Positions 5,554-19,246 of a DNA stretch of 60,042 nt are shown in pieces (position 1 is the stretch's first letter; every line of letters starts with the position of its first letter). The notes below the pieces were generated by a model. The model was not told the origin of the DNA, searched no databases, and saw only the letters and a program-made list of their open reading frames with translations. The DNA is from Escherichia phage Greed. The DNA lies in sequence record KX534337, one strand, 5' to 3'. A program made the translations under genes and the position numbers.

Positions 5554-7890
5554 TTATTTGCTTAAGTCTTTGAAAACACTCTCAATTGACTCGTCTATAT
5601 ACCATCCCAACCCCCTGAAATTACGCTTCAATGCATCCTCACGCGTAACCGGAACAAGCGCGCCCATGTCTACAAGTTGTTTGATAGTGAGGTCTGTTGC
5701 CGTACCTGCTCCCATCCTGTGATTCTTGAATGCTGCTAACCCGTAGGTTCTGCGTGTGATAGTTGCCTTCGGAATAATACCGTCAACTCGCAGCTCCTTA
5801 CGGTCACATGCAATTTTACCGCCAAGATAGTCTTTGCAAACCTGACAGATAGCCTTCACACGCGTTTCATCATCACCACCGATAGTACCTTTTTCCCATG
5901 CGTTGATCATAATGTCCTGTCCATGCGTGACAAAATCTACCGCCCATTGCATGTGATTGGGTTGAACGACAGGATTGATCCAGTTTTCCCCCACTGCTAA
6001 CAGGGATGCAAGACGCAGAGCTTTAAGGTGGGCACGGTTCCACGGCTGACGGATAGCTTCGTCTTTAGTTGCGTTAATGTGTTCATCACATAACAAGTTA
6101 AACTCCCGTTCAATCCTTTCCGCTTCAGGGCTTAACTGGACGGTAACGGTCTGGAACTTCGCCATTGTCACTAACGTGTGGTTAACGAGATGGCACACCA
6201 TGTCCTTTAATTGCTGAGGCATTGTGATTTCAGGATTCTCGTTTGCAGGAACTCGATCCCCTTCATATTGCACAATGTGGAAACGGGACAAGAAACCGTC
6301 TTCCATCATTTCACGTGTTAACGCTTCAAAGAATGTGTCCGGTGTTGTTTCGCCCAAAACGCTGAACGCCACCCCTTCCATTGTCTTGGTATTATTAGCC
6401 TTATCAGAATATCCAATACCGCCAACAACATCCATCGCACCAGATTTTTGATACACATCTGTAATAGTTTGCTTCAAGGTGTAGTTCGCAGTGCCTGGCT
6501 GAGCTGTCGCCATACCTTTAATGGTTTTACCAAACTCACCGTTAATATTCACAAACGAAGTATGATCCGCAAAACTTTTACGCAAGGCAGGACCGGAAGC
6601 ATAGTTAGTCATGTCTACAAATTCATGCACTTGCGGTAATTGCTCGCCTACTTGCTTACAGATATAACTGGGCCCAGCGTGAAGCATTTCTTTACCCACA
6701 CCTGATCGGGCAATAAGGACAAAGTAACCGTTCAGCCCTGTGTTGGTGATAGTATTCCACACCTTGCCACATACGCCGGATAAGAATGCTAAAGATGCAG
6801 TGATTGCAATTTCTTTCACCGGACGCTGCGATGCTTTGTAGATATACTTCGCAAGCTCACCAGCAAGTCCCGGCGGCCATTCAATAGCTGTTGCATCAAT
6901 GGACGTGCTTTCTGCAACTACTATTTCACCGGAAGGGCTGACTGTGGTTACAGGCATTTCCGTTACCTGCTGCATTGCACTGTGTGCGGCTTGCATACGG
7001 GCAGCGTAATCCCGCGCCAGCGCCGCTACGTTTTCCTGGGCAATACGCTCACGCTCCATGCGACCGCGACACATACGCAAACAACGGTCAATATGAACAT
7101 TGTTCTTATTAGCCTTTTCACGTTTGCCCAGTGCACTATAACGGAACAGACGACGACATTGCTCATTACTTTCTGTGTAAAATGCATACATGGAAATAAG
7201 GGCAAGGTCTGCTTCAGACTGGGAAGGGAATCCCATTTCAACCCATTCACCATTGAAGAGGCGTGCATACTTATCGCCGTTGTCCGCTTCAAGTGCACGC
7301 TGGTGAATAGTTGCATCGTCTTCTACCGGATCTTTTTCTACCAGTTCGATCTCATATGTCTTGCGCTGAAGATCAATTTCATTCACAAGCATAGTAAGAT
7401 AATGATCACGTTCTGCAACTGGTTTGTTATAGACAGGATTACCCGTGCAGATAATAAAACGCTCCTGACTATAAACCTCGACACCATCACGTCGGCGACC
7501 TTTACCGATGTTCCCTCTTAACCACAGGTGGACGCCCAAGCCTGAGCGACTTACTTCGGTGTAAGTATCGAACGCGGTCATGATCTGTTCAAAGCGGCGC
7601 AACTGTTCCGGCGTCGTGTGCTTCTTGGGATCAGGTTCATTGGTTGCGTTCTTCACATCCAGGTCGATGCAGGTGAACGGGTCTTGCGCAGTAAGCACGA
7701 AGCCAATATAAGGTTTGTTGAAATGAGCGGCGCAACCTTTAGCAGATTCAAACGTCATAAGCATATCCGGATCGGTAACGTCCGCCGCCATCAAACGCCC
7801 GATATCGTTGTCCCATACAAGAGGCTTTTTATCCGCATCGGCGACCGCCCATTGTGGGAAACCTTTAATTTCAGCGGGAAACAGTTCCAT
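5554..7890 (-). CDS. DNA primase-polymerase/helicase (prim-pol N-terminus, D5/P4-like NTPase C-terminus)
   Basis: 778 aa; N-terminal archaeo-eukaryotic-primase-like motif GLGVHLWLRG; central P-loop-like ARSGVGKE; large size and position typical of phage primase-helicases. Confidence 0.65.
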   Translation of the reverse strand: MELFPAEIKGFPQWAVADADKKPLVWDNDIGRLMAADVTDPDMLMTFESAKGCAAHFNKPYIGFVLTAQDPFTCIDLDVKNATNEPDPKKHTTPEQLRRFEQIMTAFDTYTEVSRSGLGVHLWLRGNIGKGRRRDGVEVYSQERFIICTGNPVYNKPVAERDHYLTMLVNEIDLQRKTYEIELVEKDPVEDDATIHQRALEADNGDKYARLFNGEWVEMGFPSQSEADLALISMYAFYTESNEQCRRLFRYSALGKREKANKNNVHIDRCLRMCRGRMERERIAQENVAALARDYAARMQAAHSAMQQVTEMPVTTVSPSGEIVVAESTSIDATAIEWPPGLAGELAKYIYKASQRPVKEIAITASLAFLSGVCGKVWNTITNTGLNGYFVLIARSGVGKEMLHAGPSYICKQVGEQLPQVHEFVDMTNYASGPALRKSFADHTSFVNINGEFGKTIKGMATAQPGTANYTLKQTITDVYQKSGAMDVVGGIGYSDKANNTKTMEGVAFSVLGETTPDTFFEALTREMMEDGFLSRFHIVQYEGDRVPANENPEITMPQQLKDMVCHLVNHTLVTMAKFQTVTVQLSPEAERIEREFNLLCDEHINATKDEAIRQPWNRAHLKALRLASLLAVGENWINPVVQPNHMQWAVDFVTHGQDIMINAWEKGTIGGDDETRVKAICQVCKDYLGGKIACDRKELRVDGIIPKATITRRTYGLAAFKNHRMGAGTATDLTIKQLVDMGALVPVTREDALKRNFRGLGWYIDESIESVFKDLSK

Positions 7891-10984: not shown

Positions 10985-11349
10985 GATATAAATCACTTAA
11001 TTTGTACTAAATCGTATTCCTTGTAAATGTCGCTAATGTACATATCGAACTGACCCATTAAGAAGATTTCGGCCTCCTCCCAGCTTGGGCAGATACATAA
11101 CCAGCTATTTTACCGGACGCGAGTTCCACTAATTTGAATTCCATGATGCAACCCTTAATGTGGTTAAGCAGTATTGCTTTGTTGAAGTAATAATAGCCTT
11201 GCATCGTGATATTGAATAGGCCAAAAGTGCTCTTTTAGAATTGTTTTGCATCTAGTGAAAAATACGCTTGCCCTGCATGTTTAGCACTAAGGGCCTAACT
11301 AACATCACATTATCTGGAGTATTCGCACGGGCACACACATGCTTATAAG

Positions 11350-11440
11350 GTGTGCCGGATCGACCAGGGGCATCCGGGTCCTGCGTGTGCGGAACCTACC
11401 AGGTGGGAGCAGCTCCCGCGTGTGCCGGAAATACCAGGGG
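11350..11440. repeat. Three imperfect GC-rich direct repeats (about 35-bp period)
   Basis: GTGTGCCGGATCGACCAGGGG (11350), GTGTGCGGAACCTACCAGGTGG (11385), GTGTGCCGGAAATACCAGGGG (11420); an inverted arm GGCACACAC lies just upstream. Confidence 0.6.
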
Positions 11441-11493
11441 CGCGCGAGCCCATGCACTTTACAAAATATTTTTATAAAAAGTGCAAAAAGGTG

Positions 11494-11522
11494 TAGACAC
11501 ATGATCGGTCTAGCACTACTAT
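11494..11522 (+). promoter_or_regulatory. Putative rightward promoter (TAGACA, 17 bp, TACTAT)
   Basis: -35 TAGACA, spacer containing CATGATCGGTCT, -10 TACTAT; a near-identical element recurs at 12337..12365. Confidence 0.4.
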
Positions 11523-11573
11523 ATACACATACCGCAAGGGTACTACAAATCAACTAATTTACGGGGGTACAAA

Positions 11574-11837
11574 ATGGTCCGCATCCTGGAACGTTATAAA
11601 AACGAAGCTACTGGCGCTATTGCATTCAAACGTATGTTAGTAAAACAAATCGACGGTTTATTCCGTGTTGTTAAAGAAGTCGATTACGGCAACGGCGCAG
11701 GGGTAAGCACCACTATCGTCCCGGGCATTAAAGCGTATAAAACTTTAAAAGGCGCCGAGAAAGCCTTAGCCGCCTGGAAACCTGCTCGTTATCAAATGTC
11801 CCGTGTCGAAGGGCTTATGCAGGAAGGTAAGATCTAA
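11574..11837 (+). CDS. Hypothetical protein (87 aa), first gene of the rightward arm
   Basis: ATG preceded by ACGGGGGTACAAA; the same leader/RBS is found upstream of 12399. Confidence 0.5.
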   Translation: MVRILERYKNEATGAIAFKRMLVKQIDGLFRVVKEVDYGNGAGVSTTIVPGIKAYKTLKGAEKALAAWKPARYQMSRVEGLMQEGKI

Positions 11838-11905
11838 GTTTGTTTATACAATGGGCATTAATACAGTGCCCATTAATAAGCTAACTAATCATATCGAGGT
11901 ATATT

Positions 11906-12190
11906 ATGTCCATCGTCACTATGTCGTTCTTCGACCATTGCAATAACGAAAAACAAATTATCGTGAACCTGCAAAAAGGATCTGTTGTCGCACGCAATGC
12001 TAACCGCCAATGCATCGCGCTAACCGATTTTGCTTTCCGCCTTAACGTGGACAACACCACCGCCAAAAATATCGTTCACGATACAGCGTTGGAAGCTGCT
12101 CACGCTGCGAAGGATAAAGGTATCCGCGACGCACGCAAAATCATGCACAAGGCGCTCGGCATCACGTTCTTCGTTGGGATTAAGGGGTAA
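11906..12190 (+). CDS. Hypothetical protein (94 aa)
   Basis: GAGGT RBS 8 nt upstream of ATG. Confidence 0.5.
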   Translation: MSIVTMSFFDHCNNEKQIIVNLQKGSVVARNANRQCIALTDFAFRLNVDNTTAKNIVHDTALEAAHAAKDKGIRDARKIMHKALGITFFVGIKG

Positions 12191-12195
12191 CTACT

Positions 12196-12339
12196 ATGTC
12201 ACGCAAATACACGCTTACACGCGCACAGCACGCGTTATTATTGCAGGTTATGCGCATGGAGTACGAAGAGACTACATGGGCGCAGGCTATGCAGACAGGG
12301 CGCGAGTTCTACGCGCAACTAATAGCACAAAATGCCTAG
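12196..12339 (+). CDS. Possible small protein (47 aa)
   Basis: ATG 5 nt after the upstream stop with AAGGGG RBS; open to TAG at 12337; below the ORF-track length cutoff. Confidence 0.3.
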   Translation: MSRKYTLTRAQHALLLQVMRMEYEETTWAQAMQTGREFYAQLIAQNA

Positions 12340-12365
12340 ACAACATGATCGGTCTGGTGGATACT
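12337..12365 (+). promoter_or_regulatory. Second copy of the TAGACA/CATGATCGGTCT promoter-like element
   Basis: TAGACA, 17-bp spacer with CATGATCGGTCT, GATACT; followed by the conserved ACGGGGGTAAACAAA leader before the 12399 start. Confidence 0.4.
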
Positions 12366-12398
12366 ACACACATCAACCAAACAACGGGGGTAAACAAA

Positions 12399-12626
12399 AT
12401 GCGTAGTTTCAAATGTGTAAGCGTAAATGCTACTGGTAACGGTCTGTTCACGGCAGGTAATGTATATGACTTCAACATGGAAAGTTATAAAGACACAACG
12501 CTTACAGGTGTAATGTTCGGTGGCGCTCGTGTCGTTCGCTGCCATTTAAACAAGAACACGGAAAATAAATATACCCTTATCAGTCGCTACACGGGCGAGC
12601 CGTTAGCTGTGTTCCATGCAGCTTAA
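12399..12626 (+). CDS. Hypothetical protein (75 aa; track ORF starts at 12030)
   Basis: ATG at 12399 has the conserved leader/RBS shared with 11574; the longer upstream extension overlaps other genes and lacks an RBS. Confidence 0.45.
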   Translation: MRSFKCVSVNATGNGLFTAGNVYDFNMESYKDTTLTGVMFGGARVVRCHLNKNTENKYTLISRYTGEPLAVFHAA

Positions 12627-12702
12627 GCTATAACGCACACAGCGCCGCGCTAGTGAGCTAATGTACATAGGTAATGGTAATGCATTAGCTCGGGCGAAAC
12701 AG

Positions 12703-12750
12703 GCGCACAGCGTCGCGCACAGCTCGCACAGCGCACACAGACCCACGCAG
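12703..12750. repeat. Tandem GCGCACAGC-like repeats in a 430-bp non-coding region
   Basis: GCGCACAGC, GCGCACAGC, GCACAGC, GCACACAG in tandem; strongly C+A-rich on the plus strand. Confidence 0.45.
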
Positions 12751-13060
12751 GCCCAGCCGCGCAACCCGACCCATCCTTTTCCAGGTACTTGGATCGCTGG
12801 GGCGTGCCCTGTCTATCCTGATAGTAAGTCCTTGCCTAAATCTCACCTGTCACATCCCTATCCACCTACATCCATGACCCCACCTACCTTCTTTTTGAAT
12901 ATATTGCGCTCATCCTTTCTAAATATATGGATTTTGGTAGTAAATTCTGAGTCGTCAACGTATAATTCGTCTTGTAGCTGCTCCATAGCTACCATCTTTA
13001 AGCGGATGCAACCAATTTCTATCAATTCACACCTGTTTTTAGAGCATCAAGGAGGTATTT

Positions 13061-13312
13061 ATGTGCGACACCAGTGCAAGCGCTACACCCAGCACCTCCA
13101 GCAATGTGGTTACAGAGGTAAATGCAATGCGATTAGGTCCATATCGCGGCTATTATGGTCGTGCTGCATGGAATGACGCTACTCAACGTTTTGAAGGCTG
13201 GATTATCTGCCCGGAACGTGTTAAATTTCACTCCGTAAAAGAGAAAAATATCGTTCTTAATTTTCAAAAATGTGTGACTAAATATGTAGAGGAGCAAGAA
13301 GAATGCGTGTAG
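13061..13312 (+). CDS. Hypothetical protein (83 aa)
   Basis: Strong RBS AAGGAGG 7 nt upstream of ATG. Confidence 0.5.
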   Translation: MCDTSASATPSTSSNVVTEVNAMRLGPYRGYYGRAAWNDATQRFEGWIICPERVKFHSVKEKNIVLNFQKCVTKYVEEQEECV

Positions 13313-13581
13313 AAGAGATTGTTGAAGGTAAAGAGTATCGTTTACTGACCGATATTGGTGGTGTTGGATATACTCCGGGCGATGGTACGGAGTTCCGGGA
13401 ACTGAAAGCTGGTTCTATTGTCACTGTTAATAAGGTGGTGTTTGATTTGCATAGCCTTTTCGGGCAGTGGAACCATACTGTAATTGTTAGCCAGGGTAGC
13501 GATGAATACGATGAAGAAGAGGATGCTTACGAAATCAGTTATACTGGTCTTGTAGGCGCCAATTTCCTGGAGGAAGTGTAA
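13303..13581 (+). CDS. Hypothetical protein (92 aa)
   Basis: Start overlaps the upstream gene; acidic C-terminus. Confidence 0.45.
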   Translation: MRVEEIVEGKEYRLLTDIGGVGYTPGDGTEFRELKAGSIVTVNKVVFDLHSLFGQWNHTVIVSQGSDEYDEEEDAYEISYTGLVGANFLEEV

Positions 13582-13632
13582 TTATCAATCTATAATGGGC
13601 TCTACGGAGCCCTTAATTATCTGGAGGTTGTT

Positions 13633-13935
13633 GTGCTGTATTTAGGAATGGACGAAACTGGACACGCGATTCCTTCTGTTAACAAGGAGACGCAAGTATT
13701 TACCGACTATTACGGGTCTGCTATCCCTGTAGAGCCCTGGGCTAACTTTATCGCTGTAGATGCAGATGGTAAAGTTCATTGTTATGACACCAAACCTTCT
13801 TGCTATGAATCTGGTAAGCAATGGATGCTTGGCGTATACGGATTACATGTCCGCTACTGCGGTGAAGTTGACCTTGAAGGTATGGACTGGCGCGATACGC
13901 TAAGGGAAATCAAAGAATATAGGCTTAACCCATGA
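13633..13935 (+). CDS. Hypothetical protein (100 aa), paralog of 51982..52281
   Basis: GTG start with GGAGG RBS; shares PEW...DxDG...EVDLEGMD...TL motif string with the protein at 51982..52281. Confidence 0.45.
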   Translation: MLYLGMDETGHAIPSVNKETQVFTDYYGSAIPVEPWANFIAVDADGKVHCYDTKPSCYESGKQWMLGVYGLHVRYCGEVDLEGMDWRDTLREIKEYRLNP

Positions 13936-14156
13936 AAATATTCATGATACTAGGCGTTATACTTGCCGCTTTTGTTGTATTTGCAATTGTAGATTCTAAA
14001 GAAATGGAGCGGCAAAACTGCCAACGTACTGGTAACAGCCGGGATGATATCATTTGGCAATATATTTACGATGCAAAAGGTAATGTTATGTCAATGTATC
14101 CTCAGGTTATTACTGAGTATGAATATAAATGTAATGACCGTAACAGGTGGAGATAA
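13932..14156 (+). CDS. Small membrane protein (74 aa)
   Basis: N-terminal hydrophobic helix MKIFMILGVILAAFVVFAIV; start overlaps upstream stop. Confidence 0.45.
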   Translation: MKIFMILGVILAAFVVFAIVDSKEMERQNCQRTGNSRDDIIWQYIYDAKGNVMSMYPQVITEYEYKCNDRNRWR

Positions 14157-14350
14157 TAATGGATAGACTATCCGATGAGCGCGTTGCTAAGCTTGCAGAA
14201 TATGACTGTGCAAGCAATGAGGAGGTTATGTCTTTAGCACAAGAGGTGAAGGAACTTCGAGCTGTAGCAAAGGACTTCCTGCGTCGTAATAAATATGGTC
14301 CTTTGTTCTATCGTGATTTGTATAACCGTTTTAAGGAGATTGTGAAATGA
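14147..14350 (+). CDS. Hypothetical protein (67 aa)
   Basis: Translationally coupled small ORF. Confidence 0.4.
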   Translation: MEIIMDRLSDERVAKLAEYDCASNEEVMSLAQEVKELRAVAKDFLRRNKYGPLFYRDLYNRFKEIVK

Positions 14351-14616
14351 TTACCGCTCAAGAAGCTCGTGAATTAAGCGATAAGCTGGATATTAGCGAA
14401 GATATTGAATTTATCAGTAACAGCATTCGCGTAGCTGCTACAAAGGGATACAATAAAGTATCACTGGTAACAAAATACGGATCTGTTGGCAATCCCGACA
14501 CTCAAGACCCAACCACTATGAAGATTGCTAAATGGTTAGCTGATTCTGGTTTTAAGGTGTTATATTATCCTTCAATGGACCAACGTGATAACGAGCGTAC
14601 TGAGGTAGCATGGTGA
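14347..14616 (+). CDS. Hypothetical protein (89 aa)
   Basis: ATGA overlap with the upstream gene. Confidence 0.45.
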   Translation: MITAQEARELSDKLDISEDIEFISNSIRVAATKGYNKVSLVTKYGSVGNPDTQDPTTMKIAKWLADSGFKVLYYPSMDQRDNERTEVAW

Positions 14617-14683
14617 TTGAAGAAAATATCAAATATTGGAAAGGCTTTATTGACGAAATGTTGAAACCATTGGAGAAGAAATA

Positions 14684-15076
14684 ATGCTATTAGTCGTCAC
14701 CGGAGGTCGAGATTTTAAGCATGTGGAGTATATTTATGCTCAATTGGATAAGCTGCATATGCAAAGAAGGATAACCACACTACGCCACGGTGACGCTGAC
14801 GGTGTTGACCGCATTTGCGCACAGTGGGCAGAGCGCAACGGTATTAAGACAGAAGCGTTCCCTGCCCCGTGGGACAATCTTTCCTTACCAAATACCAAGA
14901 TACGGTATAATGCCAAAGGTGCTTATAATGCACAAGCAGGCGCTTACCGCAATCAATTAATGCTGGATACCGATCCTAAACCGGATCACGCTATTGTGTT
15001 TCCTGGCGGAGCTGGTACTATGGATATGTACAGACGGATTAAAGCATCCGGTATTCCTTACACTTTAGCGGAGTAA
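14684..15076 (+). CDS. SLOG/DprA-like Rossmann-fold protein (DUF2493-like)
   Basis: 130 aa; VVTGGRDF...HGDADGVDRICAQWA...FPGGAGTMD matches the glycine-rich nucleotide-binding pattern of SLOG-type proteins; motif-level call only. Confidence 0.4.
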   Translation: MLLVVTGGRDFKHVEYIYAQLDKLHMQRRITTLRHGDADGVDRICAQWAERNGIKTEAFPAPWDNLSLPNTKIRYNAKGAYNAQAGAYRNQLMLDTDPKPDHAIVFPGGAGTMDMYRRIKASGIPYTLAE

Positions 15077-15079
15077 ATA

Positions 15080-15550
15080 ATGGCTGACGTTAAAACTATT
15101 GTTGATGCAATGGACGAGTCCAAAGACTGCCAACTGAAGAAGTCGTTTGAAGTAAAACAGGTTACAGAGACTCAGTTGGTCTGTAATTTTGCGCGTTATT
15201 GTGGACTGGGGCGCGGGAAAGACTGGAACGGGCTTATTGTTATGCCCACATCGCAGATTCTCGTTTACGTCCGCAATATTGTAGAAGATCTTTTGCGTCT
15301 TCAAATAGATATTGGTGACGTAGAAATCAACATGACCGCGAGCTCTACCATTGTGGTTAAATGGCAGTCGGGCGAGACACTGCGTTTGGAAGCGTGTTAT
15401 TGTGCTAAGAGCTTGCACCACCTGCGCGGCTGTCATTACCAGTTCGTTGGGTTTGTACATCCGCAAGGGTTAAGCGAGCGTACGGCGCTTGTAGCTCGTT
15501 TGCTGCTGCGTCCTTATAATAACGAGCCGGAAGTCATATACGAGGCATAA
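15080..15550 (+). CDS. Hypothetical protein (156 aa)
   Basis: ORF 4 nt after the upstream stop; no motif. Confidence 0.45.
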   Translation: MADVKTIVDAMDESKDCQLKKSFEVKQVTETQLVCNFARYCGLGRGKDWNGLIVMPTSQILVYVRNIVEDLLRLQIDIGDVEINMTASSTIVVKWQSGETLRLEACYCAKSLHHLRGCHYQFVGFVHPQGLSERTALVARLLLRPYNNEPEVIYEA

Positions 15551-15551
15551 G

Positions 15552-15758
15552 ATGGAAACTCCATTAGCTAAACAAATGATAGAGCGTGCGGATCGGGACG
15601 GTTTACCGGAAGACCATGCTATGCGTCGAACTGCCCAAGTATTTGACGAAATTAGCGTTAAATATGCGATGGGTAAGAGCACGCCTAAAGGTTTATTGGG
15701 CGCCTGGGCTCGCGCTTGGCGCTGCTGGTGCAACTACACCGGAGAACCACTTGTATGA
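15552..15758 (+). CDS. Hypothetical protein (68 aa)
   Basis: Small ORF, coupled to neighbours. Confidence 0.4.
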   Translation: METPLAKQMIERADRDGLPEDHAMRRTAQVFDEISVKYAMGKSTPKGLLGAWARAWRCWCNYTGEPLV

Positions 15759-16177
15759 TTAAACACGTTAAACAGCCAACGTTGAATACATGCGTTTCTG
15801 CGTGTTTGGCAATGATCCTTAATAAACCTGTCGAAAAGGTCATTAAGGAATTTCACAGTCGTTATTATAACAACTGGGAAATCACTATCAGCGAATATTT
15901 GACTAAAAACGGCGTCCCGCATCATTGTTCAGAAGGTGGTGGGCGTGAAACTTTGCATATGGGAGGTTTGTTCCTATGCACGGTGCCAAGTCTTAATATT
16001 CCTGGCGCATTGCACCAGATTGTGATTGATATGACGGATCACAAGTTTATTGTGCATGATCCAATTAAAGGATGGGAAGGTAAAAAGTTCTATGTTGGTC
16101 CGGATCAAGATCCTGAAGAGCCTGGAGCTTTTATCATTCATACTTGGGTCAAAGACGTTGAAATCCTGCCTTATTAA
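15755..16177 (+). CDS. Putative C39-like (papain-fold) cysteine peptidase
   Basis: ATG at 15755 overlapping the upstream stop; QPTLNTCVSACLAMIL resembles the C39 catalytic-Cys region and HKFIVHDP a candidate catalytic His; motif-level only. Confidence 0.4.
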   Translation: MIKHVKQPTLNTCVSACLAMILNKPVEKVIKEFHSRYYNNWEITISEYLTKNGVPHHCSEGGGRETLHMGGLFLCTVPSLNIPGALHQIVIDMTDHKFIVHDPIKGWEGKKFYVGPDQDPEEPGAFIIHTWVKDVEILPY

Positions 16178-16239
16178 TTTTCTTGCTATCACATAACCCT
16201 TCATTGTATTGTGTACCCATCGAATAAGAGGGGTACACA

Positions 16240-16425
16240 ATGACCAAACTATACGCCGGATTGTTTTTATTTGCGACGTTGATGTTCGCTGGGCTTTATA
16301 CCTATACAGTAGTCGAACAACCTTCCACGGTTATCCGAATCTTTGCAAGTACAGGGCTTTGCATCTGTCTTATTCTATTTGTTTTATGCATTGTTATTAT
16401 CCAAGACCAAAGGAAAGTTAAATGA
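16240..16425 (+). CDS. Small membrane protein (61 aa)
   Basis: Two hydrophobic helices; RBS AGAGGGG embedded in an inverted repeat. Confidence 0.4.
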   Translation: MTKLYAGLFLFATLMFAGLYTYTVVEQPSTVIRIFASTGLCICLILFVLCIVIIQDQRKVK

Positions 16426-16886
16426 CCACAATTGCGTTTGATGGAAAAGTATTAGCTGCGGACCGTGGCGTTATGCGCGGGGAAGCTGTGACTGCTTATA
16501 AGAAAGTTCATAGCGTGAATGGACATCGTGGACGGTTTTTACTGGGCTTGTGCGGTTTGACAGCATTTACCGATCAGGTGTTGCGTTATTTTAATAGCGC
16601 GGAACCTGTTAAGTTCCCTGATATTAAACTTTACAGCAAAGATGATGATTACGGGCAAACTTGCGGTCTTGCTGTCACTCCGGAAGGTACTTGCCATTTT
16701 ATTTATAATGATGGTACTTTGAGCGAACCCATGCTGGATGGATGGGGATCTGAGGGTAGCGGTTGTGTGTTTGCTGCTGGCGCGTTAGCTGCTGGTGCAA
16801 GTGCGAGCGAAGCTATTGAGTTGGCAATTAAACACACCACATGCGCATTCCTGGGAGTTGATACAATATCATTTGAGGGTTTTTAA
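16422..16886 (+). CDS. HslV/proteasome-beta-like Ntn-hydrolase peptidase (putative)
   Basis: Begins MTTIAFDGK (Thr exposed after Met removal, as in HslV MTTIVSV); KKV, GLCGLTA and GSEGSGCVFAAGALAAG parallel HslV GFAGGTA and IGSGGPYAQAAARAL. Confidence 0.45.
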   Translation: MTTIAFDGKVLAADRGVMRGEAVTAYKKVHSVNGHRGRFLLGLCGLTAFTDQVLRYFNSAEPVKFPDIKLYSKDDDYGQTCGLAVTPEGTCHFIYNDGTLSEPMLDGWGSEGSGCVFAAGALAAGASASEAIELAIKHTTCAFLGVDTISFEGF

Positions 16887-17147
16887 ATGACTACATTCAG
16901 TCACCTGATCCCACCTGCTTATCATAGTAAGGTAGTTGACCACGGGACGCATGTTGTAATTGGTGGCGAAATCTTTATCACAGATAACGAGGAAATCGCC
17001 ATTGCAATTATTGACAGCACTCAGCATGACTTTATGGTTATCCTGCAACACGAACCAGATAACTTCACTTTTTACTCCAGCTACGGGGTCGATAAAGGTG
17101 GAAAAAGCCTTGTTAGCTGGTACATTAGTGAGTGGTTTGACGGGTAA
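16887..17147 (+). CDS. Hypothetical protein (86 aa)
   Basis: ORF starting 1 nt after the upstream stop. Confidence 0.4.
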   Translation: MTTFSHLIPPAYHSKVVDHGTHVVIGGEIFITDNEEIAIAIIDSTQHDFMVILQHEPDNFTFYSSYGVDKGGKSLVSWYISEWFDG

Positions 17148-17229
17148 TCTCCTTAGATCAATTCTCCTTGCGCCGTATCAAGTTTCTCTGTTACCCTTGA
17201 GTGGTTCATGTCAAGCGGAGGAACTCGAT

Positions 17230-17667
17230 ATGGCACTTCAACCTCGTGGTATTCGTAATAACAATCCAGGCAATATTCGCTGGGGTGATAATTGGCAGGG
17301 CTTAGTTCCTGCTGATAAGCGAACCGATAAATCTTTTGCTCAATTCACGCAACCGATTTACGGCATTCGTGCGCTAGCGAAAATCCTGACAAACTACACC
17401 AAACGTGAAGGCTTGCCCAATGTAGGTAAGAAAAACATCGACACTGTACGTGAAATTATCGCTCGCTGGGCACCGCCTAACGAAAACGATACGGAAGCGT
17501 ATATTCGCTCTGTTGCTAAAGCAATTGGTGTTCAACCTAACGATCCAATTAATGTCTTCGACAAGGCAATTATGTCAGGATTGGTGAAAGCAATCATTCG
17601 TCATGAAAATGGCATGATGCCCTATACCGACGACGTAATTAACCGCGCTATTGCAATGGTACTTTAA
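17230..17667 (+). CDS. Hypothetical protein with NNPGNIR motif (candidate endolysin by position; track ORF starts at 16960)
   Basis: ATG at 17230 has a GGAGG RBS; lies immediately upstream of the holin; function not recognisable from sequence. Confidence 0.45.
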   Translation: MALQPRGIRNNNPGNIRWGDNWQGLVPADKRTDKSFAQFTQPIYGIRALAKILTNYTKREGLPNVGKKNIDTVREIIARWAPPNENDTEAYIRSVAKAIGVQPNDPINVFDKAIMSGLVKAIIRHENGMMPYTDDVINRAIAMVL

Positions 17668-17672
17668 CTGAC

Positions 17673-17693
17673 GGGGCGTTAGCCCCTTTTATT
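17673..17693 (+). terminator. Putative rho-independent terminator
   Basis: GGGGC/GCCCC stem with GTTA loop followed by TTTTATTT. Confidence 0.45.
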
Positions 17694-17703
17694 TGGAGGG
17701 AAC

Positions 17704-18048
17704 ATGTTCAATTCACCCAACGAACATTGGGCAGTTCTAGCGGGGTTTGCGTTTATCTCCCTCATTGGGGGAGCTCTCGGTTATGTCATGCGTACAATAG
17801 ACGCTGGTAAGAAAGTACGGGCAAGCATTGCGTTTCTTGAAGGCTTATCCGCCGCTTTCTTTGGCGTTATAATGTATGCGATCTACAGGGAGTTTAACAT
17901 CAGCCTTTGGTTCGCTTTTGGCCTTGCTGGCCTATTTGCTTGGGCAGGTTCACGTGCTACGCTAAAAGCCCTAACGTCGCTTATAGCTTCACGGACAGGG
18001 ATCAAACTCGATTCAGGGGACTGCAAACATGAAAACGATTCTAAATAA
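17704..18048 (+). CDS. Holin
   Basis: 114 aa with three hydrophobic helices and a charged C-terminus, directly upstream of the spanin pair. Confidence 0.6.
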   Translation: MFNSPNEHWAVLAGFAFISLIGGALGYVMRTIDAGKKVRASIAFLEGLSAAFFGVIMYAIYREFNISLWFAFGLAGLFAWAGSRATLKALTSLIASRTGIKLDSGDCKHENDSK

Positions 18049-18505
18049 CTTCTTCAGTTTTATAAAAACTAAACCGCGTCTGTTTATCGAGTATTTGATG
18101 ATCGGCGCGGTTGTGTTTTTATGCGGGGTGGCTGCATACTTGTGGTCACAGAACGAGCTTAGCAAAACTAATTTAAATCATGCTGAGCAAAGACTAACCG
18201 TTGTAGAACGGGACAATGCAAAGCTGGGCGAAGCTGTTGTATTTCTTGCATCCCAACGGGAGAAGGATACTGAATCCTATCGAAAATTGGCTTCAGCAAT
18301 TGAAAGTGAGCAACATAACCACAGGTTGCTTCAGGACAAATTAAAAGCACTGGAGAAAAGCAATGCCGACGTCAAAGCTTATCTTAATGAGCGTGTTCCT
18401 GATGATTTGCGCAGGCTGCTCGACGGAGATACAACCTCCACCACCGCCGCAGATAGTGAAGATAAAACTTCCGGCCCATCTGTTGGTAGAATGTCGGGAA
18501 GTTGA
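18029..18505 (+). CDS. Inner-membrane spanin (Rz-like)
   Basis: N-terminal transmembrane helix followed by a long charged, coiled-coil-like periplasmic region; the o-spanin overlaps in another frame. Confidence 0.6.
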   Translation: MKTILNNFFSFIKTKPRLFIEYLMIGAVVFLCGVAAYLWSQNELSKTNLNHAEQRLTVVERDNAKLGEAVVFLASQREKDTESYRKLASAIESEQHNHRLLQDKLKALEKSNADVKAYLNERVPDDLRRLLDGDTTSTTAADSEDKTSGPSVGRMSGS

Positions 18506-18668
18506 TAAATATCCTTTGGTTTATACAAGGGACATTATCCAACGTTTGCAGGATACAGAAACAGCTCTGACTGAATGTAAACTGAGGGTTAAGGAAATCA
18601 TACGCTATGAAGCTGAAAATGTTTCGCTTGATTTTGTAGGATCAAGCAATTATATTCAGCCTAAATAG
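18363..18668 (+). CDS. Outer-membrane lipoprotein spanin (Rz1-like), overlapping the i-spanin in another frame
   Basis: Signal peptide with lipobox-like ICAGCS followed by a PPPPP run, as in lambda Rz1; overlapped arrangement with the Rz-like gene. Confidence 0.55.
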   Translation: MPTSKLILMSVFLMICAGCSTEIQPPPPPQIVKIKLPAHLLVECREVDKYPLVYTRDIIQRLQDTETALTECKLRVKEIIRYEAENVSLDFVGSSNYIQPK

Positions 18669-18688
18669 CAATAAGAAAGGGGGCTTCC

Positions 18689-19246
18689 ATGAACGGGGCA
18701 AGTCAAGAGCAATATGATCCTGACTGGACGAATTACATCCAGTATGCAAATAGCTTGTCCGCTGAAGAGATGGCAATACGTGACAAAGTTGTTGCTGAGT
18801 ACATGTTCGACTACAATTGGACTAACGCTTGCATGAGATGCGGGTTCAATGCTATGTTTGCACAGGAGCTTGGCCAACGCTTTGCCACGGACTGTTATGT
18901 TCGATGGAAGCTCAAGGAGATTGAAAGATCCCGTGTTCAACGTACTTCTGAGCAAGCTAACATTGAAGCAGACCTTGAGCGTCAGCATATCATTGAAGCA
19001 TTAAAACGTGAAGCTCATTATACAGGACCGGGATCTTCTCAAGCTGCTAGAGTCGCCGCATTGGGCAAGCTTGCACAAATTTATGATTTGGATGCTCCCA
19101 AGAAGGCTAAGATTGATGTTACTAACAGAGGCGGCGTAATGATAGTCCCTGCTGTAGCAAATATTGACGAATGGGAAAAAACTGCATCCGAGTCTCAACA
19201 ACGACTAGTTAAAGAGACTGAAGATGGAGCTAAACCGACAATCTGA
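18689..19246 (+). CDS. terS: Putative terminase small subunit
   Basis: 185 aa ORF immediately upstream of and overlapping the large terminase; assignment by position. Confidence 0.45.
   Translation: MNGASQEQYDPDWTNYIQYANSLSAEEMAIRDKVVAEYMFDYNWTNACMRCGFNAMFAQELGQRFATDCYVRWKLKEIERSRVQRTSEQANIEADLERQHIIEALKREAHYTGPGSSQAARVAALGKLAQIYDLDAPKKAKIDVTNRGGVMIVPAVANIDEWEKTASESQQRLVKETEDGAKPTI

Follow-up and report, generated by a model that had tools for sequence, protein, structure and literature searches.

A conserved, untranslated C-rich stretch among the early genes of Escherichia phage Greed: a tentative Rho-dependent terminator with a following promoter

Introduction

The Rho factor of E. coli acts on a particular kind of RNA. 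A sense transcript that is long, C-rich, G-poor, rich in pyrimidine-cytosine (YC) dinucleotides, unstructured and untranslated makes up a Rho utilization (rut) site, and termination takes place downstream of it. In phage lambda, such a terminator is part of the nutR-tR1 layout, in which a linear block is followed by a hairpin and then by the Rho terminator. Here we describe positions 12627-13060 (434 bases) of Escherichia phage Greed (KX534337), a Seuratvirus (Queuovirinae); the 60,042 nucleotides (nt) of its sequence are called the window below. Seuratviruses are E. coli phages that have been isolated widely and are present in the BASEL collection, and their DNA carries a 7-deazaguanine modification. 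The stretch is non-coding, conserved and modular, and it is extreme in both its composition and its lack of pairing. Judged from these features, our leading but tentative reading, held at somewhat less than an even chance, is that it is an untranslated intercistronic control region made up of a Rho-dependent terminator or attenuator and the promoter of the next gene. Literature searches turned up neither a paper about this region nor a transcriptome or other transcript data for any Seuratvirus, and the papers searched contained nothing on Seuratvirus early-gene regulation or the start site of replication.

Two described Rho sites come closest, lambda tR1 (cro-nutR-tR1-cII) and E. coli trp t'. 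Like both of these, the Greed element is untranslated, comes immediately behind a stop codon and offers more than 78 nt of C-rich, G-poor, YC-rich and unpaired sense tract, with hairpins upstream and no intrinsic terminator. It further resembles lambda tR1 in lying in the early operon of a phage, where it precedes the next gene. It differs from known rut sites in having neither sequence similarity to them nor a boxA, and in that its blocks and its GCACAGC units are conserved in sequence, which is unusual for rut. As for lambda nut, the Greed hairpin called H1 below has a conserved loop, but its sequence is unrelated to boxB.

A second group for comparison is formed by the iteron-type origins of phage P4, with its ori/crr octamer TGTTCACC, and of the staphylococcal pathogenicity islands (SaPIs), where self-loading primase-helicases act at short iterons. 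Greed is similar in that it has direct repeats of 8-9 nt near an AT-rich segment and encodes a fusion of a primase-polymerase (prim-pol) and a helicase. In contrast to these origins, there are only 3-5 units, on one side, and the element is ~4.7 kb from the helicase gene. The Greed repeats also show no co-variation with the C-terminal allele of that protein, and the array is missing in a subgroup with the same allele.

Finally, early-operon stretches of 0.6-1.0 kb with no annotated gene are present in Nonagvirus 9g (L161; 24866-25904, minus strand) and in the Providencia Craquatrovirus phages PSTCR7 and PSTCR4 (L023/L024; 717-1361). As in Greed, their sense strands are poor in G (13-15%) and carry CCCCAC-type motifs near the 3' part, which are followed by AT-rich, repeat-bearing, promoter-like sequence and then by the next gene. 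Unlike the Greed stretch, they begin with a canonical intrinsic terminator, and that of PSTCR7 is A-rich, not C-rich. The PSTCR7 stretch contains many AACAATAAC-type repeats, and GATCTTTATAAAT is found twice in that of 9g. Homology to the Greed element was considered and rejected, as the similarity is not significant (best E 0.015-0.026); the 9g and Providencia counterparts are a lead and not evidence of homology.

The locus and its relatives

Genes are oriented leftward up to ~11300 and rightward from 11574, and 12627-13060 lies within the rightward block of small early genes, ~1.3 kb in from its start. On its left is a gene of 75 amino acids (aa) at 12399-12626, with its stop codon at 12624-12626, and on its right a gene with a strong ribosome-binding site begins at 13061. 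The stretch is best read as transcribed though untranslated, inside the rightward early operon.

The region 12300-13400 matches 33 phage records at 90-98% identity, nearly all of them E. coli Seuratviruses (KurtStettler, SLUR76, CAjan, Seurat and others), and the genome has a single copy of the element's core. No match to the element was found among 5,426 E. coli genomes or the PLSDB plasmids, and a host or plasmid origin was rejected on that basis. The distant relatives compared are Salmonella phage STP-SP5, Hafnia phage yong3 and the metagenome contig L111. The last of these is the one useful distant relative from a metagenome pattern scan, which also gave at least seven close relatives among the matches listed. 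A viral-contig pattern search returned close relatives and two unrelated contigs that are probably chance matches, and all 13 of 13 genome-contig pattern hits were without BLAST similarity to the window.

The C-rich tract

The feature that carries the proposed Rho site is a tract in the middle of the stretch that contains four conserved blocks, each invariant across 11 sequences:

12740..12900, + strand: C-rich, G-poor, unpaired (rut-like) tract of ~160-190 nt, holding the conserved blocks and the CCACCTAC pair
12765-12790, + strand: conserved block CCCGACCCATCCTTTTCCAGGTACTT
12809-12826, + strand: conserved block CTGTCTATCCTGATAGTA, with a small hairpin at 12809-12824
12838-12847, + strand: conserved block AAATCTCACC
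12878-12888, + strand: conserved block CCCCACCTACC

The excess of C over G at 12842-12919 (78 nt) is +26, the largest on the + strand of the whole 60-kb window; within the + strand gene block no other stretch exceeds +18. Counted from 12840, 78 nt contain 30 C and 5 G, where a rut site is expected to have C well above G over at least ~70-80 nt. The tract also has the low structure and the YC richness of a rut site. The most unpaired 80-nt stretch in 11500-19000 is 12814-12893, with a mean unpaired probability of 0.737 against a mean of 0.451 (SD 0.059), and YC dinucleotides reach their highest density in the same interval, 24 per 80 nt where the mean is 6.4 (SD 3.2). By sequence signs the tract appears free of translating ribosomes, as it follows the upstream stop codon and no frame has a coding signature. 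Terminator prediction gave no intrinsic terminator from 12235 to 13597. Folding of the whole region gave z-scores of +0.44 (+ strand) and +1.39 (- strand), not above shuffled sequence; a highly structured RNA was considered, and these scores and a weak RNAalifold consensus rule against it.

This composition is not particular to Greed. The maximum C-minus-G was compared across STP-SP5, yong3, L111, the GottfriedDienst-type relatives and the endonuclease-carrying relatives (both described below) and Providencia phage PSTCR7, and it lies at 17-30 within the non-coding stretch, while the flanks do not exceed 15. The G-poor bias holds in every lineage, even where the sequence itself has been replaced. 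Across 12700-12888, the composition is C 40.7%, G 19.6%, A 21.2% and T 18.5%. The strong strand asymmetry noted in a preliminary description of this DNA is therefore real, but its label of C+A-rich does not fit, the bias being mainly toward C. The C-rich pair that it mentioned is CCACCTAC, at 12862 and 12880.

Repeats and hairpins

The 5' edge of the C-rich tract is occupied by short GCACAGC repeats:

12703..12740, + strand: imperfect tandem array of GCGCACAG(C) units, with three exact CGCACAGC and a degenerate CGCACACAG at 12732

Exact copies of CGCACAGC start at 12704, 12716 and 12725, and degenerate copies are found at 12634-12644 and 12732-12740, which agrees with an initial count of four or five tandem units. 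Tandem Repeats Finder reported arrays at 12703-12727 (period 12), 12714-12740 (period 9) and 12703-12737 (period 7). In the whole window CGCACAGC occurs 6 times against 1.84 expected. Among 16 close relatives only 3 of the 65 columns at 12673-12737 vary. STP-SP5, L111 and yong3 retain two to four copies of GCACAGC, and these copies, along with several other blocks, are invariant in relatives of only 63-68% identity. In GottfriedDienst-type relatives the repeat segment has been replaced, and only two CACAGC copies are left. The GCACAGC repeats may be part of the proposed rut site or a site for a sequence-specific factor. A further GCGCACAGC copy lies at 12219-12235, in the loop of a small hairpin (ACGCG-CACAGCA-CGCGT) within a 47-aa gene (12196-12339); this hairpin is also present in CAjan and in GottfriedDienst-type relatives.

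Three hairpins accompany the tract, two before it and one after it:

12606..12643, + strand: hairpin H0, an inverted repeat with 5' arm GCTGTGT (12606-12612) and 3' arm ACACAGC (12637-12643)
12655..12691, + strand: hairpin H1, GAGCTAATG / CATTAGCTC, a perfect 9-bp inverted repeat with a 19-nt loop containing GGTAATGGTAATG
12974-12992, + strand: hairpin H3 of the 5' untranslated region (5'-UTR), GTAGCT / AGCTAC, followed by the conserved CATCTTTAAGCGGATG at 12993-13008

The 5' arm of H0 is within the end of the upstream gene, while its 3' arm is part of the conserved block ACGCACACAGCGC (12633-12645). In STP-SP5, L111 and yong3 this 3' arm pairs with a nearby GCGCTGT, and the distance to the 5' arm varies by lineage. 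The conserved ACACAGC(G/T)C comes straight after the stop codon of the upstream gene, no matter which gene occupies that place.

H1 and H3 are maintained by compensatory and G-U wobble changes that favour RNA of the + strand. The H1 stem is compensated in STP-SP5 (GAGCTAGCCC/GGGCTAGCTC) and re-formed as GGTAATG/CATTACC in GottfriedDienst-type relatives, and in Seurat a G-U wobble permits pairing on the + strand only. The loop bases A(A/G)G(T/C)AAT are conserved while the stem covaries. H3 is retained in all 8 of 8 distinct variants, with compensated stems in STP-SP5 (GTACC/GGTAC) and L111, and two wobble variants fold better on the + than on the - strand. The roughly five independent lineages at hand do not suffice for covariation statistics.

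Non-coding status

Two open reading frames (ORFs) cross the stretch:

12661..13176, + strand: spurious ORF of 171 aa, not a gene
12858..13025, - strand: spurious ORF of 55 aa with a TTG start, not a gene

Comparison among relatives supports the view that 12627-13060 is non-coding, as the preliminary description had proposed from the sequence alone, and by substitution pattern and indels neither ORF behaves as a gene. That description had also stated that the + strand ORF lacks a ribosome-binding site and runs into the 13061 gene, and there is indeed no clear Shine-Dalgarno sequence, and the ORF overlaps the 13061 gene in another frame. The + strand ORF has lost its ATG in GottfriedDienst-type relatives, and indels of 1 nt and 31 nt (+1, +31) break its frame in relatives. 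Across 12627-12890, 71 of 264 columns are variable in 16 close relatives, and their positions modulo 3 are distributed 25:24:22, with no 3-base periodicity. The - strand ORF is intact in 18 of 21 relatives and might for that reason seem a plausible gene, but one stop and two frameshifts occur among the 21, and its changes are 4 synonymous against 16 non-synonymous, with codon positions 7:7:6. As a control, the core of the neighbouring gene (13127-13309) shows 12 synonymous changes against 1 non-synonymous and codon positions 1:0:12, as expected of coding sequence. Thus neither ORF shows the kept frame and synonymous excess among relatives that mark a gene. Neither is retained in STP-SP5 or yong3, which together with the substitution pattern led us to reject the 55-aa ORF, and no PHROG or Pfam family matches any of the four ORFs inside the region.

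That either ORF is translated after all is very improbable: some GenBank records do annotate the + strand ORF from the 12661 start, at 58 (SeppeHuegi), 92 (CAjan), 126 (Seurat) or 171 aa (KurtStettler), ECP2304 and CSP1C annotate a 42-aa ORF on the minus strand, and AGGTG lies 4 nt ahead of the TTG start, but the annotated lengths differ because of frameshifts, other records annotate nothing from 12661, and every comparison above argues the other way.

The AT-rich segment and the downstream gene

Past the C-rich tract, the composition changes and candidate signals for the next gene appear:

12889..12960, neither strand: AT-rich segment (32% G+C) that separates the candidate promoter from the C-rich tract
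12938..12966, + strand: candidate sigma-70-type promoter, TAGTAA, 17-nt spacer, TATAAT
12931..12958, - strand: candidate leftward promoter, TTGACG, 16-nt spacer, CAAAAT, a scan hit that overlaps the rightward candidate
13049..13063, + strand: Shine-Dalgarno AAGGAGG (13049-13055) and ATG 13061, the start of the downstream gene

The blocks TTTGAATAT and GGATTTTGGTAG.AAATTCTGA of the AT-rich segment are conserved in STP-SP5 and L111. The rightward candidate, which would drive the 13061 gene, has hexamers that do not vary among 21 close relatives, and in STP-SP5 and L111 a -10 of TATACT stands at the same position with a -35 of TAGAAA or TAGCAA. TAGACA as a -35 is also present in two other promoter-like sites of this operon. 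It is uncertain whether the leftward candidate functions as a promoter. Its TGAC-N18-AAA is retained in STP-SP5, L111 and yong3 and is lost in endonuclease-carrying relatives, though the left half of the element is still present there. Minus-strand CsrA-type GGA motifs and a Chi-like GGTGG, picked out by eye, were dropped, since STP-SP5 does not conserve them and the leftward promoter is missing from the endonuclease-carrying phages.

The conserved core of the downstream gene is HicB-like and begins at ATG 13127, with its own GAGG ribosome-binding site. The first 22 codons from 13061 (13061-13126) are of low complexity and poorly conserved, and between 13061 and 13127 the frame is intact in 16 of 21 relatives, the other 5 having a frameshift. 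What is translated from 13061 may thus be an extension that the protein can do without, or else a coupled leader ORF. Annotations of this gene differ among records (252 nt or 186 nt).

A promoter-plus-leader cassette is present twice upstream, at 11494-11577 and 12337-12401, each time preceding a small early gene. It is made up of TAGACA(A)CATGATCGGTCT, a -10-like TACTAT or GATACT, and then ACGGGGGTA.A.AAAATG. The second cassette and the gene 12399-12626 are absent from CAjan and GottfriedDienst-type relatives, like a moron-type insertion.

Conservation and modularity

The preliminary description had called for a comparison with related phages and counted absence from close relatives against itself. 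It had also suggested testing for a small-RNA or protein-binding function, a range that the features described here narrow. The core is present in every Seuratvirus examined, with the qualification that the tandem-repeat segment is replaced in one subgroup and the right half in another. A common order of blocks is found in STP-SP5, yong3 and L111. It begins with ACGCACACAGCGC, a hairpin, two to four GCACAGC units and CCCGACCCAYC..TTTC..GGTACTT, and continues with TGTCCATCCTGATAGTA, AAATCTCACC, CCCCACCTACC, TTTGAATAT, GGATTTTGGTAG.AAATTCTGA and CATCTTTAAGCGGATG, the last being retained in STP-SP5 and L111 and not in yong3. The identity of the non-coding stretch to these distant relatives is 0.63-0.68 against 0.55-0.67 for third codon positions of the neighbouring gene, which indicates moderate purifying selection concentrated in the blocks.

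In GottfriedDienst, SA126VB, SLUR25 and ECP2304, a longer, hairpin-rich insert takes the place of the repeat segment and joins at GGTAATGGTAATGCATTA. In WildeMaa, SA80RD, Dru_SM1 and Skure, an HNH homing endonuclease gene replaces the sequence from just after CCCCACCTACC to ~13126. The same replacement has probably taken place in phiG7, where a homing endonuclease is annotated near the match and only the left half matches. Hybrid forms exist, such as SeppeHuegi with its STP-SP5-like segment, and the ATAACGCACACAGC block is abutted by different upstream genes in different relatives.

The HNH gene is free-standing and has its own extended -10 (TGCTAAAAT; L013 2838-3311, L014 2830-3312, L021 2008-2481 and L022 2008-2481; these intervals correspond to window 12889 to ~13126). 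The extension at the N-terminus of the downstream gene is displaced by it as well. The downstream HicB-like protein is 80-84% identical in HNH carriers and 98-100% identical elsewhere, a difference that co-conversion, or divergence of the target site, would be expected to produce around a homing site.

Proposed mechanism

If the stretch is a Rho-dependent terminator or attenuator followed by a promoter, transcripts from upstream promoter-like sites (e.g., TAGACA-17-GATACT at 12337-12365) would exit the upstream gene at its stop codon, ending at 12626, and H0 and H1 would be the first structures to form. Next, ~160-190 nt of C-rich, G-poor, unfolded and ribosome-free RNA would be exposed. Rho could load on this tract and halt RNA polymerase in the AT-rich stretch downstream, and H0 and H1 would remain as stable 3' ends once an exonuclease has trimmed the transcript. 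Transcription would be restarted by the candidate promoter at 12938-12966, giving an mRNA that starts with H3 and carries the strong ribosome-binding site of the 13061 gene. Rho action, promoter activity and 3'-end trimming are what we infer from the composition, the predicted pairing and the motifs described above.

Several observations weigh against this proposal. The -35 of the rightward candidate promoter is weak (3/6) and falls below the threshold of the scan tool, and the RNAalifold consensus is weak (-18.6 kcal/mol) with an unfavourable covariation term. Blocks of 10-26 nt and the GCACAGC units are invariant across lineages, whereas rut sites are usually conserved in composition only. 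Such exact conservation suggests recognition by a sequence-specific partner, which the Rho model does not name. Every Seuratvirus examined also has the core, even though the genes on its flanks have been exchanged, which is beyond what would be expected of a simple terminator. Lastly, the analogous G-poor stretch of 9g and PSTCR7 is preceded by an intrinsic terminator of canonical form, which would leave a Rho site nothing to add there.

It is possible, although unlikely in our estimate, that the conserved core is a new cis-acting element specific to Seuratviruses that has a sequence-specific partner, acting either as an antitermination or Rho-modulating RNA or as a replication origin. This core would comprise H0 and H1 with its fixed loop, GCACAGC, CCCGACCCAYC..GGTACTT, ATCCTGATAGTA and CCCCACCTACC.

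Alternative explanations

The alternative that survives best, which we nevertheless doubt, is a non-coding RNA element, acting in cis or after processing, to which a sequence-specific partner is recruited, either as a nut- or put-like antitermination site or as a decoy or sponge for a host RNA-binding protein. The linear block ACGCACACAGCGC is followed by H1, with its covarying stem and fixed loop. Invariance extends to the GCACAGC units and to four other blocks. The changes tolerate G-U pairs in a way that indicates the + strand, and the position right after a stop codon and before a rut-like tract is that of lambda nutR-tR1. However, Rfam 15 has no family that matches 12627-13060 at E<1 (the only two hits of 11000-15000 fall elsewhere and score far under their gathering scores), and no tRNA or tmRNA was found in the window. 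Folding is no better than that of shuffled sequence, the consensus fold is weak and there are few true compensatory pairs. By inspection, there is no conserved boxA-like sequence (consensus CGCTCTTA / TGCTCTTTAACAA), so the locus lacks this mark of a lambda-type nut site. The element has a single genomic copy, the neighbouring genes are all of unknown function with no candidate antiterminator protein among them, and the evidence comes from only about five independent lineages.

Next comes an origin of DNA replication, also unlikely, in which a phage initiator, for example the 778-aa prim-pol/helicase encoded at 5557-7890, would use the GCGCACAGC units as its iterons. The AT-rich 12889-12960 would then act as the unwinding element, and the overlapping promoters could provide transcriptional activation or, through a G-rich leftward transcript, an R-loop primer. 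The element is single-copy with a core universal in the genus, and it contains short direct repeats that are invariant across distant lineages and close to the segment of 32% G+C. It lies ~1.3 kb from the point of transcription divergence and the sign change in GC skew, though the skew change is inseparable from gene orientation. The leftward promoter-like site faces a stretch that would give G-rich RNA, with four GGG runs at 12745-12775, and the prim-pol with its DUF3987 helicase resembles PDB entry 7ola, deposited as 'DNA primase'. The repeats themselves argue against an origin, as the units are 8-9 nt with irregular spacing (12, 9 and 9 nt), not phased iterons of 17-22 bp. Iterons would also be expected to co-vary with the DNA-binding domain of their initiator. 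The C-terminal 170 aa of the primase-helicase, whose binding to the origin is an assumption, exist as two alleles (100% or 54% identical to the window) whose distribution does not follow that of the element: KurtStettler, SLUR76 and CAjan have the other allele with the same repeats, while GottfriedDienst, SA126VB and SLUR25 have the window's allele without the tandem array. In viable phages, the AT-rich segment and both promoters are replaced by the endonuclease cassette, although that cassette is itself AT-rich. Further, the hairpin changes favour RNA of the + strand, and the sole DnaA-box-like site, CTATCCACC (7/9), is not conserved and was rejected.

Two side observations concern this subject. 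The 100% allele of the primase-helicase C-terminus (5557-6066, minus strand) is present in ~17 records and the 54% allele in ~16, and two such alleles among otherwise near-identical E. coli Seuratviruses point to module exchange within the gene. At 11350-11441, three 22-nt direct repeats, GTGTGC(C)GGA..ACCAGG(G/T)G., are spaced by exactly 35 nt and resemble iterons or operators. They lie in a non-coding stretch of 70% G+C that separates the divergent early operons, where CAjan has an annotated coding sequence over them. As an alternative origin or operator this array was set aside, since the pattern used finds it in the window, in CAjan and, with two copies, in Dru_SM1, but nowhere else.

A functionless remnant is improbable, whether a decayed gene (e.g., on the minus strand), a scar of a homing endonuclease or a linker for recombination between exchangeable modules. 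The excess of C over G on the + strand is the trace that a former minus-strand gene would be expected to leave, as coding strands here have positive GC skew. Module junctions do fall inside the element (the GottfriedDienst-type insert at GGTAATGGTAATGCATTA, the STP-SP5-like segment of SeppeHuegi and the HNH gene after CCCCACCTACC), and different upstream genes adjoin the same ATAACGCACACAGC block. But the blocks remain unchanged at distances at which the neighbouring gene retains only 55-67% identity in its third codon positions, and no relative, distant ones included, has an intact gene here. No frame matches a protein family, and the hairpins have been kept by compensatory change.

Implications

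For the annotation of Seuratvirus genomes, the spurious ORFs annotated here in several GenBank records should be taken out. If the stretch is only a Rho-dependent terminator with a promoter, it would be an ordinary element of a well-known kind. If the core is instead a new cis-acting element, then Nonagvirus and Craquatrovirus would carry compositionally similar counterparts of the same functional class. The core is common to the Seuratviruses examined, within an otherwise highly mosaic block of small early genes, and this makes it a place to look for the early-to-middle boundary of these phages or for their origin.

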